Of a DNA stretch of 64,000 nt, positions 44,085 through 50,768 are shown piece after piece. Below the pieces are notes generated by a model. The model was not told where the DNA came from, did no database searches, and saw only the letters and a list, made by a program, of their open reading frames with translations. The position numbers were made by a program, and so were the translations under genes. Numbering within the stretch: position 1 is the first letter of the stretch; each line of letters begins with the position of its first letter. The DNA is from Candidatus Bathyarchaeota archaeon (GTDB lineage Archaea; Thermoproteota; Bathyarchaeia; Bathyarchaeales; Bathycorpusculaceae), in NCBI GenBank assembly GCA_963832745.1, contig CAWHVC010000005.1:384001-448000 (forward strand), in the 5' to 3' direction.

Positions 44085-46967
44085 TTATTCGATGTAAATT
44101 GCTGGTTGATACGGCATTGCCATCGGTGCACGGTTTTTGGGGTCAAAACGGTCTTTGTCGTCTTCACTGTAAACGCTGACTTCAGCTCCGAAACGGTCCT
44201 TAAGGAAACCCAAAGCGTCGGCAACAATCTGCTTCTCATCGACGGTTTGGATTTTAACCATGTTTGCTTTTCGGTTACTTGCCAGTTTTGTTGATGCTTT
44301 GATGATTTTGGGTACCAAGGCGGCGATGTCTTTCATGTGTGGTTTAAGTTCAGGGTCTGCGGCGAATTCTTTCATGAGTTCGGGAATTTTCGCTTCACCG
44401 GAAACGACTTTTTCGAGGACTTTTAAGTAGATTTGCCATTTCCAAGCTGCAGCAGCGTAGAAGACGAGGCGTTTGGGCGTGATTTTGGTTGCTTTGAGGA
44501 TGTTTTGTGTGTCGGTTAAGATGTCGGTGATTAGGTTTTCTTGCTCTTCAGCGGCAAAATCCAGTTTAGCTTCGTCAAACTCTGGCCATTTAGCTACACT
44601 AATAAAGCCAGTTTCGCCTGTTTGGCTCCAAAGTTCCTCACACATATAAGGAGCAAACGGGGTAAGCATCTTAATCCAAACCTTAACCGTCTCGACAAGC
44701 GCGGCTGCGTTTGCGTTGCCTTTCCTTTGAATGTACCATCGCAGGTCATTCCACACTTCGAAAAGCGCCGTTTGCAGCGCAGTGCGTGTTTTAAGTTCAT
44801 CAAGACTCTCGGTAACTTCACGGATGCGGTACTGCAGTTTGCTTTGCAGCCAACGTTCCAGCACAGTGTTTTCATCCTGTTTGGTGGTTGCGATGATGTT
44901 GCTTGCAAAACCATTTAGGGATTCAAACTTGGTTTTGAGGTCGCTTACGTTGTCTGCTCGCCAGTCTGGGTCATCCATGCCTTCAGCGCCAATCATGAGT
45001 CCACAGCGGGTGGCGTCTGCGCCGTATTTGTCGATGGCGCCTTTCATTGTGATGAAGTTGCCTTTGCTTTTGTGCATGCCTTGACCTTCAACCATGAGCA
45101 TGCCGTTTACGCCGATGCCTTTTGGCCAATGTTCTGGCGGGAACAGGGCGGCGTGGTGGAAGATGCAGAATGAGAGGTGGTTGGGTACGAGTTCTTTTGC
45201 AGAGTTTCTTAGGTCGAATGGGTACCAGTAAAGGAATTCGTTGCGCATTGAATCTAAAAGCTCAACGCTGATGCCGGTTGCGGTGCTAATTTGGTTTTTG
45301 TCGCCTTTGCCATAGTAAATGTAGTCAAAAACTTCTGGAACAAGCGCTTCTGGAGCGATCTTGTTTTGGTTAATGTGCTTGTTTATGGTGTAGAATGCCA
45401 TGTAAATGGTGGAGTCGCTTAAGGTTTCAATTATCCAGCCTTTACCCCAGGGCAACGGCGTTCCAAAACCGGTGGTTCTTGCGCAAGCCCATTCACGGAG
45501 CCAATCGATGGTGGTGTAGAAGCCTGTGCGGGCGCCTTCAGGGTAAATCCTCATTTGCGCCACCACTTCTTTGGCTTTCTCTTTCCACTGCGGGTCAGAA
45601 TAGTTTAGAAACCATTGGTCAGAAAGAATCTTGACAATGCACTGTGTCATGCATCGGCAAACCACTTGTTCAGGCAAATCATACATGCTGTCGGAAACGC
45701 CAAGTTTGTGGAAGTCAGCAATCAATAAATCTTTAACTTCACGGATTGATTTGCCAGCGTAGACGCCGCAGTTGGGTTTTAGTTTGCCGCTGTGGAATTC
45801 TTTCTTGTAAAGCTCTTTAGTGGCTTGATCCGCTTTGGGGTCATGCTGATCTTTGATTCCCATCTGCTCAACAATTTCAACAGCTGGATACTCTCCGAAC
45901 CCGTCAACTTTAATGATTGAAATCGGCTTAATCTGCAAAACCACTTGTGGGTCAACACCGAAATCGCGCATGACTTCGGGTTTCTGCTGCAAATCCTTCA
46001 ATGCCAACCAGTCGAAGGGTGCGTGAGCAGGAACGCTGTAAACGACACCTGTTGCCGTTTTGGGATCAACAAACCAGCCTGGCAGGATCGGGAACTTTTC
46101 GTGGGTAACTGGATTTTCAAATGTTTTGCCGATTAATTCTTTACCTTTGAAAACGCGGTGTATTGTGACGGTTTTTTGTTGCTCTTTTAGTTTTTCTGCG
46201 GCTTCTTGGCTGATTATCCAGTTTTCACTGTTAACCGTGGCTTCTACGTAGGTAGAGTCGGGGTTAATCCACAAGTTGGTTATGCCGTAAATGGTTTCTG
46301 GACGGAAAGTTGCTGCTGGCAAAACTGTGGTTTCATCAAGTTTGTACTTGATTATAGTGTATTCTTCAGGGGTTACGCCTTCACCGATTTGACGGTCATG
46401 GTCGCCGGTGGGGCTTTGGTCTTTTGGACACCAAACAACCGGATGAGTGCCCCGTGTAACGTAGCCTTTTTCTTTTAGGTTTTTGTATTGCCATTCAATA
46501 AATTTCTGAAAAGTCGGCCAAACCGTAGTGAATTCTCTGCGCCAGTCAACTGAGAATCCGATGCGTTTAGCGGCGATTTTGCCTTCACTTGTGTAATATT
46601 GAGCCATATATTTTGGGTCAACAAACTTTTGCAGTTGCTCTTCTGGGACGCCGTCTACTTCGCGCAGGACACGGATGAATTCTTGGTCGCCTCTTGCTAC
46701 ACGTTGACTTGCACCCAGCAGAGGTTGTCCAGTCCAATGCCATGCCCAAGGCCAAAGCACGTTGTAGCCTTGCATGCGTTTGAAGCGGGCGTAAGCGTCA
46801 ACTCTGCTGGCGGAGAAAGCGTGACCAACATGTAAGGGTCCGTTCATGTATGGGAACGGGAATGTTACCATTACTTTTTGTCTTGCCGGGTCTGGGTCTG
46901 CTTCGAATATGTGTGCGGCTTCCCATCGGGATAGCCATTTTTCCTCGACTTGCTTTGTTTGGCTCAT
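44085..46967 (-). CDS. leuS: Leucyl-tRNA synthetase (archaeal type)
   Basis: FPYMNGPLHVGH, editing-domain ATFRPET and SVPAHAPFD, ETLSDSTIY, MHKSKGN. Confidence 0.95.
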   Translation of the reverse strand: MSQTKQVEEKWLSRWEAAHIFEADPDPARQKVMVTFPFPYMNGPLHVGHAFSASRVDAYARFKRMQGYNVLWPWAWHWTGQPLLGASQRVARGDQEFIRVLREVDGVPEEQLQKFVDPKYMAQYYTSEGKIAAKRIGFSVDWRREFTTVWPTFQKFIEWQYKNLKEKGYVTRGTHPVVWCPKDQSPTGDHDRQIGEGVTPEEYTIIKYKLDETTVLPAATFRPETIYGITNLWINPDSTYVEATVNSENWIISQEAAEKLKEQQKTVTIHRVFKGKELIGKTFENPVTHEKFPILPGWFVDPKTATGVVYSVPAHAPFDWLALKDLQQKPEVMRDFGVDPQVVLQIKPISIIKVDGFGEYPAVEIVEQMGIKDQHDPKADQATKELYKKEFHSGKLKPNCGVYAGKSIREVKDLLIADFHKLGVSDSMYDLPEQVVCRCMTQCIVKILSDQWFLNYSDPQWKEKAKEVVAQMRIYPEGARTGFYTTIDWLREWACARTTGFGTPLPWGKGWIIETLSDSTIYMAFYTINKHINQNKIAPEALVPEVFDYIYYGKGDKNQISTATGISVELLDSMRNEFLYWYPFDLRNSAKELVPNHLSFCIFHHAALFPPEHWPKGIGVNGMLMVEGQGMHKSKGNFITMKGAIDKYGADATRCGLMIGAEGMDDPDWRADNVSDLKTKFESLNGFASNIIATTKQDENTVLERWLQSKLQYRIREVTESLDELKTRTALQTALFEVWNDLRWYIQRKGNANAAALVETVKVWIKMLTPFAPYMCEELWSQTGETGFISVAKWPEFDEAKLDFAAEEQENLITDILTDTQNILKATKITPKRLVFYAAAAWKWQIYLKVLEKVVSGEAKIPELMKEFAADPELKPHMKDIAALVPKIIKASTKLASNRKANMVKIQTVDEKQIVADALGFLKDRFGAEVSVYSEDDKDRFDPKNRAPMAMPYQPAIYIE

Positions 46968-47102: not shown

Positions 47103-48113
47103 ATGTCAAGGGAAAGCTTAGCGGAAAAACTAATAGCTACATTGAACCAGAAAAGCGAAAAAGCCATTGACGCAGCAAAACAGTTAATTTTAGAAGAAAA
47201 ATTTTGTGGGGAAAAAGTTAACCAGACTCTTGAACAGTACACTGCAAAGTGGAGTGATAGCACAAGACCGGGAACGTTGGCTTTAGCGTTTGAAGCCGTA
47301 GGGGGAAACCCGGGTGATGTGGTGCCTCTTCAGACTGCGTTAGTGCTTATTGACGCCACAATGGATGTTCATGACGACATTATTGATGGTTCAATCGCCA
47401 AAAAGAACGTTAGAACGGTTTATGGCAAACTTGGGAAAGAAGCCACTTTGCTTCTGGGCGACGCTTTTATGGTTAAAGGTTTTAGGCAACTAAATAAGGC
47501 CACCGAGAATTTATCGAAAGAAAAAAGACAACAAATTGTAGATGCAGTTAACAGTTTTCTTCTTGAAGTAGTTGACGCACACATCAGCGAAGCACAGTTA
47601 AAGACTAAGAAGTGGAATATAACTCCTGAAACGTACCTGCAAGTTTTAACTGGTAAAGCGGCTGATATTGATGGGCGCATGAAAGTTGGCGCTATTTTTG
47701 GTGGAGGGTCACCAGGTGAGGTTGAAGCTTTGGGCAAGCTTGGAAGAAACCTTGGGGTTTTGCTGGTGATTAGGGCAGAATATGTGGACATGTTTGAGAC
47801 TGATGAGTTATCAAACCGTGTTAAGAATGAATGTTTACCCTTGCCTGTACTCTATGCCATTCAAAACAGGACCGCGAAAGGAAAAATCAAAAAAATCTTG
47901 TTAAAAGAAAAAATTACTCAAAAGGATTGCGAAGCTGTTCTTGAAATTTTGGACAAATCGAAGGAAATGAAAAATCTTAAAGAATATTTAGCAAAAATTG
48001 CTTTTGAATCAAAAATATTGGCAGAAAGTATAAAGGGAATTCAAGCACGAAACGACTTAAACAATTTAATCGCTTCATTGCTTGAAAATCTTATAGTCCT
48101 CTTTAGATGGTAA
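47103..48113 (+). CDS. Polyprenyl-synthase-fold (trans-prenyltransferase-like) protein with degenerate second Asp-rich motif
   Basis: RP, HDDIID (FARM), LLLGDA; SARM position reads IRAEYVD; ECLPLP. Confidence 0.8.
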   Translation: MSRESLAEKLIATLNQKSEKAIDAAKQLILEEKFCGEKVNQTLEQYTAKWSDSTRPGTLALAFEAVGGNPGDVVPLQTALVLIDATMDVHDDIIDGSIAKKNVRTVYGKLGKEATLLLGDAFMVKGFRQLNKATENLSKEKRQQIVDAVNSFLLEVVDAHISEAQLKTKKWNITPETYLQVLTGKAADIDGRMKVGAIFGGGSPGEVEALGKLGRNLGVLLVIRAEYVDMFETDELSNRVKNECLPLPVLYAIQNRTAKGKIKKILLKEKITQKDCEAVLEILDKSKEMKNLKEYLAKIAFESKILAESIKGIQARNDLNNLIASLLENLIVLFRW

Positions 48114-48153
48114 AGCGGACTGGTTTCTTTCTCACTTGTTTAACTGCCTTCAT
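48103..48153 (-). CDS. 16-aa basic peptide MKAVKQVRKKPVRFTI
   Basis: CAGGTGA SD 5 nt before ATG (48159-48165) and AAAGCTTATAT BRE/TATA (48189-48199) on the minus strand; not in the ORF track. Confidence 0.6.
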   Translation of the reverse strand: MKAVKQVRKKPVRFTI

Positions 48154-48295
48154 CCCTTTCACCTGTATATCTGTAGAACGCAGACACAATATAAGCTTTG
48201 TTGTACTACAGACATACAAGTGATAAAAAGCATGCTAAAAATACGTATTTTAGATTCATAAGGTTATAGGGCATGTATGCAATAGCACTACTTAG

Positions 48296-49613
48296 ATGTG
48301 CAAAACAAAACTCACCGATTGGCCAGTACTTTTTCTGGTTGCGAACAGCATATCCTGGTTTAGCCTTACCATGCTTATTATCGGAGATTTTGCTGGAGCA
48401 TATTCAACAAATGAAACATTAACTATTGCAGCAGGCTATTTCGGTGGCCTAATAATATCGGCAACAATAGGCGCCACCATTTTACAAAACAAATTAAGAA
48501 ACAAAGGGTTTTTGGCCTCATGGATTCTCTTTGGTGTTGCAACGTGCATAATATTTTCCCAAGTGGGCTTCACGGACGTTTTAAACATTACTTTAGCCTC
48601 ACTAGTCCTCGGAGTATCAGTGGGTTTAGGAATACCAACATGTTTTTCATTCTTTGCAAATCAAACAAAAATTGAAAACAGGGGAAAAATAGGGGCAATA
48701 CTGTTCTTTCTCATCCAATTTTTCAGTGCCATAATAATTCTTTCACAAACTGACATGGGAATCAGCAATCAATTTTTAATACTTGCATTATGGCGATTGA
48801 TAGGCGCAGTAGGAATCATTAGTTACAAATCACCATTGAATCAACAAAAAGAACCGGCGACATCCATTAGGTCAATCATCAAAGAAAGACCCGTTCTCCT
48901 TTTCTTCCTGCCATGGTTCCTGTTTACCTTAGTGAATTTTATTGAGTCACCAGTAATTGAGACTTATTTTGGTCCAGAACTTTTCAATAGTTCAGTGATA
49001 GCAACCACTTTTATTAGCAGCATTTCAGCGTTCCTTGCCGGAACGCTCTGCGATATCAAAGGTCGAAAAATCACAGGCATAATAGGTTTCGTTCTTTTAG
49101 GCTTAGGTTACGCGTTTCTAAGTTTTCTTAACTGGTCCTGAGAAGATTATTGCACAATATCTGTACATTTTATGCGATGGATTAGCATGGGGCATTCTTT
49201 TTGTTACATTCATTTTTGTCGTGTGGGGAGACTTATCAGAAGGCAAAAACCGTGAAAAATATTATCTTGTGGGCAGCATGCCTTTCCTCTTTTCAGGCAT
49301 GATAGAAATGCTAATTCAACCAATTGCAAAGGACATTGCTATAGGCACAGCATTTTCTCTTGCCAGTTTCTTCTTGTTCTTAGCAATCGTCCCATTGCTT
49401 TATACAACTGAAACTTTGCCTGAAAAAGCCATGAAAGATAGGGACCTTAAGAGTTATCTTGAAAAAGCTCAAAAAGTTGCTGAAAAAGAAGCCGCCAAAA
49501 AACATCATAAAGAAAAATCTAAATCTCAGAAAAAAGAAGAAAAGGAAACTGCTGAGGAAGAGAATTTTAAAGAGTACGAAGAAGCTCAAAAATTGGCAGA
49601 ACAATACTATTAA
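48296..49613 (+). pseudogene. MFS-type transporter interrupted by one +1 frameshift near 49130 (possibly a sequencing error)
   Basis: ENRGKIG and GTLCDIKGRK MFS motifs; after skipping one base the frame continues GPEKIIAQYLYILCDGLAWG...VVWGDL into ORF 49221-49613. Confidence 0.75.
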
Positions 49614-49637: not shown

Positions 49638-50768
49638 ATGTTCTTTCACGTGATACTCACCACGGACTGCAACCTTCAATGTAAATACTGCTTCGGCGAA
49701 TCCCTTGACGATTTTGACGAAGACTTCAGTGACGACTTAACAGTAGACTATTCATTGCCAAGAAAAATCACTTATAACATCAAAATGTTAAAAGAATTTT
49801 GCAGCAAAGACCCCGACTGTGTATTGACGTTTTATGGCGGCGAACCTTTGATGCAGATGGAGCCGCTTAAGCAAATCATGGACAATATTGAACCTAAAAT
49901 GTACATGATGCAAACCAACGGTTTACTTCTTGACAAACTTGAGTCCAAGTACGTTAACCGTTTCCACACCCTGCTTGTCTCAGTTGACGGCGAGGAAGTT
50001 TTAACTGATTATTACCGTGGAGCGGGCACTTTTCGCAAAGTCGTCGATAACCTAAAACTCATAAAACAAAACGGCTTCAAAGGCGAATTAATCGCCAGAG
50101 TCACAGTGATGGAGCAAACAGACATTTACAAACAAATCCGCTGGCTACTTGAAAACAAAGAGTTCCCATTCACTTCGTTACATTGGCAGCTTAACGCTGG
50201 TTTCTGGGGCAACGATTACCAAAGACGCAACTTCAAAGAGTGGTCAGAAACCAACTATATTCCAGGTGTTAGGGCGCTTGTCAAATTCTGGGTTGATACT
50301 ATGGAACAGAAAGGTCAGGTGCTAAAGCTTTACCCAATTTTAGGCGTAGCATACTCAATGCTGCATGATGAAAACGTGAATTTTCTGCGTTGCGGCGGCG
50401 GATGGGTAAATTATGCCATTCAAACAGACGGTTACATTTTGGCTTGTCCAACAATGTGGGGAATGACGCAGCATTACCTGGGACACATCGCTGATGCACA
50501 TCCGCTTAAGCTTGAGAAAGTGTTTGTTAATCAGCCGCCTTGCTCTGAATGTGAAATTCTAAACATGTGCGGTGGCAGATGCTACTACGCCAACGTAACG
50601 CAACGGTGGAGCGTGGATGCTTACAAGGAAGTCTGCAACACAGTCAAAGCCCTTGTTGATGATGTCTCAGTGGAGGTTCCACGCATAAAACAGTTAATAG
50701 CTCAAGAAAAAATCAGCTTAGCAGATTTTGACTTTATCAAATACAACGGCGCTGAAATCATTCCATAA
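49638..50768 (+). CDS. Radical SAM/SPASM protein (resembles AF_0577/TIGR04084 putative peptide-modifying family)
   Basis: CNLQCKYC, FYGGEP, QTNG, SVDG; SPASM CGGG...DGYILACP...CSEC...CGGRC...C; ends AEIIP. Confidence 0.85.
   Translation: MFFHVILTTDCNLQCKYCFGESLDDFDEDFSDDLTVDYSLPRKITYNIKMLKEFCSKDPDCVLTFYGGEPLMQMEPLKQIMDNIEPKMYMMQTNGLLLDKLESKYVNRFHTLLVSVDGEEVLTDYYRGAGTFRKVVDNLKLIKQNGFKGELIARVTVMEQTDIYKQIRWLLENKEFPFTSLHWQLNAGFWGNDYQRRNFKEWSETNYIPGVRALVKFWVDTMEQKGQVLKLYPILGVAYSMLHDENVNFLRCGGGWVNYAIQTDGYILACPTMWGMTQHYLGHIADAHPLKLEKVFVNQPPCSECEILNMCGGRCYYANVTQRWSVDAYKEVCNTVKALVDDVSVEVPRIKQLIAQEKISLADFDFIKYNGAEIIP

Follow-up and report, generated by a model that had tools for sequence, protein, structure and literature searches.

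A 16-codon gene at the end of a prenyl-synthase-like gene

We describe a micro-gene of 16 codons on the minus strand of a 64-kb window from a Candidatus Bathyarchaeota archaeon ("the window" being the whole stretch of 64,000 nt analysed, C5:384001-448000 of a 3.02-Mb genome in five contigs). It lies tail to tail with the gene for a divergent polyprenyl-synthetase paralogue (PPS). Comparison with related archaeal sequences makes it very probable that this is a real translated gene and that it is tied to a module composed of PPS and a transporter of the major facilitator superfamily (MFS). The positions of the micro-open reading frame (micro-ORF), its expression signals and its neighbours are given in Table 1. 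The predicted peptide, of 16 residues, is basic; Pro-Val-Arg forms its core, and its tail is hydrophobic.

Evidence for a coding function came from seven related contigs (L002-L008) found through their PPS genes, with protein identities of 51-82%. The start, the stop, the frame and the length of 16 codons are kept in all of them, though the adjacent PPS falls to 51% identity; the segment following the PPS stop retains the promoter, ATATACAGGTG, the ATG and the 16-codon ORF in each case. One relative, L003, shows no difference from the window across the micro-ORF (0/48 nt), its PPS being 80% identical. Where the sequences diverge, changes are mostly synonymous: seven synonymous and one non-synonymous codon changes separate L004 from L013 (non-synonymous rate, dN, 0.027; synonymous rate, dS, 1.56), four and two separate the window from L013, and five and four separate L006 from L007. 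Between close relatives the dN/dS ratio ranges from 0.02 to 0.3. The two copies of the micro-gene present in L005 differ by a single synonymous Arg codon. No conserved RNA structure was found with RNAalifold (consensus, -2.45 kcal/mol). Altogether, the maintenance of start, stop and frame, the excess of synonymous changes and the lack of a shared RNA structure argue for a translated gene, in support of an earlier note which, from the letters of the window, had proposed a hidden gene of 16 codons at this site.

Duplications of the micro-gene together with its promoter occur in L005 (2571-2621 and 4002-4052) and L007 (3998-4048 and 4307-4357). Both are segmental and include the tail of the synthase gene.

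Expression signals

The same note had listed a full set of archaeal signals: a B recognition element (BRE) and TATA box, CAGGTGA as the Shine-Dalgarno (SD) sequence about 23 nt later, a 5-nt spacer, ATG, 16 codons and TAA. All of these were recovered with that spacing, and translation of the ORF gives the peptide that the note had listed. The BRE/TATA-like element, AAAGCTTATAT, is identical in seven of nine aligned relatives, with A/T variants in both L005 copies. Farther downstream, ATATACAG is nearly invariant in two alignments (A1 and A2) and in most of 49 promoters compared, and is the predicted site of transcription start. In the 16S rRNA of the same genome the 3' terminus is ...GGATCACCTCCT, so that AGGTGA constitutes a six-base SD match. 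SD-led translation is in use in this organism, since SD-like tetramers are enriched between positions -17 and -4 of long ATG-initiated ORFs (377/1302, against 100/1302 in a control interval). T-runs directly follow the micro-ORF stop codon.

The contention that correct spacing of the signals makes a chance origin less likely held up. The combined pattern TTATAT-N18-30-AGGTGA-N3-9-ATG is present once in the 64-kb window and in none of 100 dinucleotide shuffles. Taken alone, the 11-mer AAAGCTTATAT is unremarkable, with four copies in the genome against about four expected (by arithmetic from a G+C content of 41.8%). It is conservation that weighs most against chance. Also as had been noted, the 3' end of the micro-ORF is antisense to the end of the prenyltransferase-like gene: the two overlap by 11 nt, and the neighbour, on the plus strand, belongs to family PF00348. 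The micro-ORF has no paralogues in its own genome and is single-copy. An Rfam scan of the window returned one tRNA only, with no match at the micro-ORF locus.

Table 1. Features of the micro-gene locus (positions in the window)
Feature	Position	Strand	Remarks
Leucyl-tRNA synthetase (LeuRS)	44085-46967	minus	1.1 kb away; next minus-strand gene past the micro-ORF
PPS, divergent polyprenyl-synthetase paralogue	47103..48113	plus	PF00348, 71.6 bits; convergent with the micro-ORF
Micro-ORF	48103..48153	minus	ATG 48153-48151, 16 sense codons, TAA 48105-48103
Shine-Dalgarno CAGGTGA	48165-48159	minus	5-nt spacer to ATG; GGTG invariant in alignment A2
Predicted transcription-start region ATATACAG	48170-48163	minus	About 24-27 nt past TATA; 5' leader about 13 nt
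Proximal palindromic box	48172..48180	minus	Between TATA and predicted transcription start
BRE/TATA-like element AAAGCTTATAT	48199-48189	minus	23 nt before CAGGTGA
Distal palindromic box, TGT-W-S-W-ACA type	48202..48210	minus	Directly upstream of BRE/TATA; presumed operator half
MFS transporter	48296..49613	plus	PF07690; divergent from the micro-ORF
TIGR04084 radical SAM/SPASM protein	49638..50768	plus	307 bits, against a cut-off of 225

A stable hairpin is found at 48040-48085 of the minus strand, about 20 nt past the micro-ORF stop (fold of 131 nt, -31.8 kcal/mol, z = -3.2). It is antisense to the final synthase codons and is not conserved in distant relatives.

Extent and features of the peptide family

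A pattern search, which the earlier note had put forward as a means of finding orthologues, reached only the closest relatives. A strict degenerate pattern, scanned over 401 genomes of the class, gave five genomes with true members (G000, G320, G326, G368 and G393) and six that resembled chance matches; the reversed pattern, used as a control, matched in two genomes. The strict pattern being too narrow, it was replaced by a covariance model (R1, sequence-only) that covers both promoter and ORF. R1 matched 74 of 151 genomes of the window's own family. Among the best 29 foreign R1 loci, 28 have the conserved promoter followed by a basic ORF of 12-24 codons, and each of these 28 adjoins the 3' end of a PPS orthologue (identity, 30-55%); an MFS gene is present in 27 of the 29. 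The exception, L049, is a promoter-like false match. R1 thus also scores sites that are promoters only; its second matches likewise fell on promoters of PadR regulator genes in four cases out of four.

An independent start was made from PPS, searched at E <= 1e-25 over 121 genomes of the class. PPS is present in 21 of these, distributed over families f1 (11/14), f5 (4/4), f4 (2/4), f6 (1/1), f14 (1/1) and f32 (1/1). The micro-ORF accompanies it in 14 of 20 foreign PPS genomes, with weak candidates in two more; families f4, f5 and f6 account for six of the 14, out of nine genomes outside the window's own family. It was not found in the remaining four PPS genomes (G139, G071, G098 and G004), nor in G127 and G094, in addition to being duplicated in L005 and L007. 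In G098 (contig C37, locus L120), a decayed member is seen past the PPS stop: the start is family-like, the TATA has been lost, and for want of a stop codon the frame continues antisense into the synthase gene.

All relatives of the synthase carry Bathyarchaeia or Bathyarchaeota in their titles. A profile scan of named genomes likewise placed the PPS subfamily (at least 32% identity) in Bathyarchaeia records only, one contig excepted. That contig, CAYGAW010000072.1 (L146), is labelled "uncultured Anaerolineales bacterium" and has the synthase-ORF-MFS module with a Bathyarchaeia-type promoter; it is probably mis-binned. Micro-ORFs were also found in further named Bathyarchaeia records, including CP122380.1 (Ca. 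Bathyarchaeum tardum). Conservation at the amino-acid level, on which the earlier note had let its proposal stand or fall, is therefore clear, and a recognisable peptide family spans at least four families within a single order of Bathyarchaeia. A universal or ribosomal housekeeping micro-protein was considered and rejected, the distribution being patchy and confined to PPS-carrying genomes of that order.

When the loci were pooled, 82 of 91 PPS-to-MFS intervals scored 7 or more for the ORF, yielding 57 distinct peptides. These are 12-23 residues long (median 16), with a net charge of +3 to +10 (median +6). Pro is present in 56/57, as Pro-x-Arg/Lys in 51/57, and is found among the last three residues in 10/57; Cys occurs once. 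The last six residues include Trp in 36 peptides and an aromatic residue of any kind in 50, no tail position being invariant. Common to the peptides are a strongly basic head, a core of Pro-(Val/Ile)-Arg and, at the end, a tail that is hydrophobic and in most cases aromatic. The tail changes quickly in sequence and length between close species; the basic/Pro-x-Arg part is conserved. The ORF stays within 12-23 codons while its nucleotide sequence diverges almost fully.

The micro-gene is so far unannotated. The six family members long enough for look-up are all absent from a collection of 15 billion proteins, and the full-text literature on archaeal small ORFs or Bathyarchaeia small proteins, supplementary tables lying outside the search, gave no account of such a gene. 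A full-text search on TIGR04084 and on Bathyarchaeota radical SAM precursor peptides returned nothing relevant.

A three-gene module

Of 49 loci, 42 have the ends of micro-ORF and PPS no more than 40 nt apart; the two overlap in 15. On the other side, a median of 192 nt separates the ATG of the micro-ORF from the first aligned MFS residue. From these distances and spacings it follows that the micro-ORF is always convergent with PPS and divergent from MFS. Losses are concerted: G127, from the window's genus, keeps a radical S-adenosylmethionine (SAM) gene beside LeuRS and is without PPS, ORF and MFS together, while G094 has neither PPS nor a convincing micro-ORF. The radical SAM gene follows MFS in every f1 locus that reaches far enough, and this link fails outside f1. 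We thus take the module to comprise PPS, the micro-gene and MFS. At the level of gene content and order, the comparisons show the micro-gene to be an integral, co-inherited part of this module. In sister families, one or two PadR regulator genes belong to the module as well.

Past the micro-ORF, the minus strand runs antisense to PPS, and the next gene on it is LeuRS, whose position is held in f4 and f5 by PadR, on the other strand. A role as leader (attenuator) peptide was excluded on these grounds, there being no conserved gene downstream on the same strand.

A +1 frameshift, from one extra T in the T-run at 49123-49126, breaks the window's MFS gene into two ORFs (48296-49141 and 49221-49613). 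In L002 and L003 the run counts three T and the frame is intact, and L004 has a different in-frame length. The frameshift is either a homopolymer assembly error or the mark of a recent pseudogene. Searches with the MFS protein matched no solved structural relative and no curated family.

Shared promoter elements and PadR regulators

Much more than a TATA box is conserved in the micro-gene promoter. A palindromic TGT-W-S-W-ACA box is found on each side of the TATA. Single boxes number 238 in the window's genome (0.079 per kb); the pair around a TATA occurs only here in its 3.02 Mb. A box at the distal position is present in most related promoters, and elements of the AAAGCTT(A/T)TAA type are found across the family.

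In all five non-f1 loci examined, PPS is immediately preceded by a PadR gene that reads the same way. Four of the five carry another PadR gene, divergently oriented, which has an amidohydrolase and a DrrA-like ABC transporter for neighbours. The second-best R1 matches, about 1.6 kb away from the first, are the promoters of the divergent PadR gene in the four genomes examined, all four of which carry the same proximal box, AATACAG and SD. G136 and G077, too, have boxes in their PadR intergenic regions, and others lie about 200 nt upstream of three of the four PadR paralogues in the window's own genome. From the motifs common to micro-gene and PadR promoters, we infer joint control of the micro-gene and the module by a PadR-type repressor. 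Three own-genome paralogues (C1:257009-257314, C1:172307-172609 and C4:257590-257895), with a single box each, are 47-65% identical to the module PadRs of other families. In the window's genus, the regulator genes have thus come to lie apart from the module.

The divergent PadR promoters of G302, G448 and G434 (L218, L219 and L220) contain a near-perfect palindrome of the type ATATGTCC...GGACATAT in the position of the TATA region. It precedes the shared proximal box and has the appearance of a classical PadR autoregulatory operator.

The synthase paralogue

The genome has three PF00348 genes, the canonical one scoring 218 bits against 71.6 bits for PPS. The AlphaFold model of PPS (predicted local distance difference test score, 90.8) adopts the fold of trans-isoprenyl diphosphate synthases (IPPS). 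Residues were counted across 33 orthologues. The first aspartate-rich motif (FARM), D-D-x-x-D, is intact in 33/33 and the Arg that would follow it is Lys in 33/33. The motif-I Lys position holds Lys or Arg in just four, and the second Arg after FARM is Arg in just one. In the second aspartate-rich motif (SARM), the first residue is D in 11, E in 10, A in six, S in four, H in one and N in one; the second is E in 24 and D in nine; and the last Asp is present in all 33. We take the motif-I Lys and the second Arg after FARM to be residues that hold isopentenyl diphosphate in farnesyl-diphosphate synthases. With FARM intact and those residues not conserved, the prenyl-donor site would be kept, and the canonical acceptor site for isopentenyl diphosphate would not. 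These data bring to notice a divergent IPPS subfamily with a non-conserved isopentenyl-diphosphate site.

Precedents for the use of this fold on peptides exist. Two sources (bioRxiv 10.64898/2026.08.29.745113; PMC5331326) describe IPPS-fold enzymes that prenylate an adjacent small peptide, among them the ComQ family, which prenylates a Trp of its peptide and is marked by an Asn-Asp pseudo-SARM.

Possible roles of the peptide

We tentatively favour a role in trans for the peptide: it would be cargo handled by the PPS-MFS module, exported and possibly lipid-modified. Of the two likenesses that the earlier note had drawn, to a precursor and to a docking peptide, this view would take up the first. 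A PadR-type repressor acting at the two boxes that flank the TATA would switch the peptide gene along with the module. The conserved basic/Pro-x-Arg part would provide recognition and the variable tail would be the working part; the MFS pump would export the peptide, and the IPPS paralogue, whose prenyl-donor site is kept, might attach a lipid to it. Prenylation, taken as a separate step, is doubtful. The cargo reading fits best because it accommodates at once the conserved basic/Pro-x-Arg part, the fast-changing aromatic tail, the exporter, the altered enzyme and the shared regulation. Its architecture would be analogous to that of ComQ/ComX or of the microcin C gene set. An elaborate version, in which the micro-gene supplies a precursor of 12-23 residues, the IPPS prenylates its aromatic tail, MFS releases the product and PadR-type repressors at the boxes around the TATA sense it in a feedback loop, would make this an archaeal peptide signalling or lipopeptide system, equivalent to ComQ/ComX but assembled from other parts; we regard that much as quite improbable.

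Several observations weigh against the cargo reading. PPS and MFS are intact in G139, which is without the micro-ORF, and the window's own MFS gene is frameshifted. The tail is without Trp in 21 of the 57 peptides, the window's own included (Phe only), and without any aromatic residue in seven; a signal-like hydrophobic stretch is absent from the peptide. Genes for a protease, a receptor kinase or an importer are not conserved beside the module (60 neighbouring proteins at seven loci). By fold and sequence PPS is nearest to ordinary geranylgeranyl diphosphate (GGPP) synthases: among solved structures 1wy0, a GGPP synthase from Pyrococcus, matches its model best (TM 0.81), and Ord1, an indole prenyltransferase, comes at rank 21 (TM 0.70). 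Membership in the ComQ group was rejected, as the SARM position is acidic in place of the hallmark Asn-Asp, and PMC5331326 presents DDxxD at that position as unsuited to Trp prenylation. Synteny within one order can persist through descent alone. Finally, the ORF score rewards motifs that were later counted.

Controls for strand and shuffling were run because of this last circularity, and they bear on the alternative that the ORF is an untranslated chance occurrence in a conserved regulatory region, where what is conserved would be the promoters and operators of its neighbours. On the expected strand 47/57 intervals scored at least 8, against 2/57 on the other strand and 32 of 1140 shuffles. 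Operator-like boxes are indeed conserved in the intergenic region, and R1 does match PadR promoters that have no ORF. This strand asymmetry, together with the synonymous bias of the substitutions, a conserved SD at the right spacing and the stable length of the ORF, nevertheless leaves the chance explanation hardly tenable. A cis-acting role is distinctly unlikely but has more in its favour: an antisense or dual-function RNA, made mainly from the regulated promoter and reaching into the 3' end of the synthase gene, would lower synthase expression, the ORF serving to load ribosomes or to sense by stalling. The tight, conserved tail-to-tail layout, the boxes on either side of the promoter and the stable hairpin after the ORF would suit it, as would the subset of peptides with Pro within the last three residues, since Pro-containing endings slow translation termination. 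It accounts poorly, however, for purifying selection on the amino acids and for a peptide motif common to four families; no conserved RNA structure was found, the T-runs past the stop could end the transcript early, and the classical leader role is excluded by the lack of a conserved same-strand gene.

Were the peptide to act in trans without being modified, it could be an intracellular partner that works with the module at the membrane, its basic head and aromatic tail perhaps binding an anionic lipid, a polyprenyl diphosphate, the synthase, the charged tail of the transporter, or PadR, for which it would be an inducer. Conservation, synteny and co-regulation fit this equally well as they fit export. 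A polybasic stretch with an aromatic anchor is a composition typical of membrane-surface binding, the enzyme fold is ordinary, and genes specific for processing or export are not conserved nearby. However, rapid variation of the tail is unusual for docking on conserved proteins, and G139 manages with both large genes and no micro-ORF; overall we consider such a partner somewhat unlikely. A last possibility is that the peptide is a very short precursor of a ribosomally synthesized and post-translationally modified peptide (RiPP), cross-linked by the neighbouring TIGR04084 radical SAM/SPASM enzyme. The latter is a full-length member of its family, with PapB-type peptide maturases as the next-best matches, it adjoins MFS in f1, and aromatic-rich tails resemble the substrates of cyclophane-forming enzymes. 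Yet the enzyme is more widespread than the module, exceeding the cut-off in 62/121 class genomes against 21/121 for PPS. All 14 TIGR04084 loci examined outside f1 have neither PPS nor MFS upstream. Conversely, the five non-f1 modules examined have no radical SAM gene nearby, G090 separates the two by 205 kb, and G127 has the enzyme without the module. Being linked to the module only in f1, the radical SAM gene is probably not a partner. The tails also offer no invariant modifiable residue, Cys being found in one of 57 peptides and an aromatic being absent from seven. Membership among radical SAM/SPASM RiPP precursors thus failed for both co-occurrence and a conserved core residue, and we consider it very improbable.

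The window's radical SAM/SPASM protein is of the AF0577 type, with a CX2CX5CX3C motif. Outside f1, TIGR04084 genes have no conserved neighbours.

Comparison with known systems

Under the cargo reading, the closest parallels are ComQ/ComX of Bacillus and StheQ/StheX of Sphaerobacter. There too, an all-alpha enzyme of the trans-IPPS fold with an intact FARM is encoded beside a small peptide gene; as with ComX and StheX, the micro-peptides mostly have a Trp or other aromatic residue near the C-terminus and a tail that varies between close relatives. The minimal ComX substrate, given in PMC5331326 as an 11-residue C-terminal piece, is comparable in length to whole micro-peptides. There are also differences from ComQ/ComX. 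The present system is archaeal; its genes are convergent rather than co-directional; the peptides have 12-23 residues instead of 53-73, with no tail Trp in 21/57; SARM is acidic and not Asn-Asp. PPS is no closer to Ord1 than to GGPP synthases. ComP and ComA domains were not found among the 60 neighbouring proteins of the seven loci, where PadR and MFS are seen instead.

Microcin C is made from the seven-codon gene mccA with the help of a modifying adenylyl-transferase and is exported by the MFS protein MccC. The likeness is in a tiny gene dedicated to a very short ribosomal peptide, placed beside a modifying enzyme and an MFS efflux pump. Unlike the present case, the enzyme there is an adenylyl-transferase and not an IPPS paralogue, and the genes, which are bacterial, share one strand as an operon; an immunity peptidase was not seen at the present loci. 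The streptococcal pheromones SHP and XIP/ComS are encoded by 17-35 codons and depend on Rgg/ComR receptors of the RRNPP family, the exporter PptAB and the importer Opp. Like the micro-gene, they are unannotated micro-ORFs under a regulated promoter beside the controlling regulator, and their products have a basic N-terminus and a hydrophobic C-terminus, often with Trp-Trp. The composition of the micro-peptides fits this type; however, SHP and XIP are far more hydrophobic, and the adjoining regulators here are PadR, with no Rgg/ComR, PptAB or Opp seen.

PqqA-type short RiPP precursors resemble the window's peptide in being short, basic and close to a radical SAM/SPASM gene, and differ in that this linkage is not conserved outside one family and no modifiable residue is invariant. 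Leader and arrest peptides, and dual-function small RNAs, resemble the micro-gene in size (12-23 codons), in their strong SD, in lying antisense to a neighbouring gene and, for a subset, in Pro-rich endings. What sets the micro-gene apart from them is the absence of a conserved downstream gene on the same strand, a motif kept over four families, and a promoter of its own flanked by presumed operators.

Significance

Bathyarchaeia are among the most abundant archaea of sediments and are nearly uncultured. The micro-gene is too short for gene callers, yet it is conserved, evolves under purifying selection and is tied to an enzyme-transporter-regulator module; as such it offers a well-defined and testable case of an archaeal micro-protein. 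Experiments are feasible, since the module occurs in a named, enrichment-cultured species, Ca. Bathyarchaeum tardum (CP122380.1). Very small peptide genes that go together with an enzyme and an exporter are known; should the mechanism hold, this would be the first archaeal instance. If the cargo reading is true, the module would represent the first ribosomal peptide signal or lipopeptide cluster of its kind in Archaea.

Synthase loci in other genera

Variations of the synthase locus were observed in some genomes. In f5 genomes, two tandem synthase paralogues are present (L131, 6679-8749; L132, 6564-8634), which are 35-39% identical to the window's and overlap by about 10 nt; they may form a heteromeric enzyme. 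In G114 (L137, 5770-6912), a gene for a geranylgeranyl-reductase-like flavoprotein lies directly upstream of the synthase gene in the same direction, which hints at an isoprenoid-lipid context in some genera.

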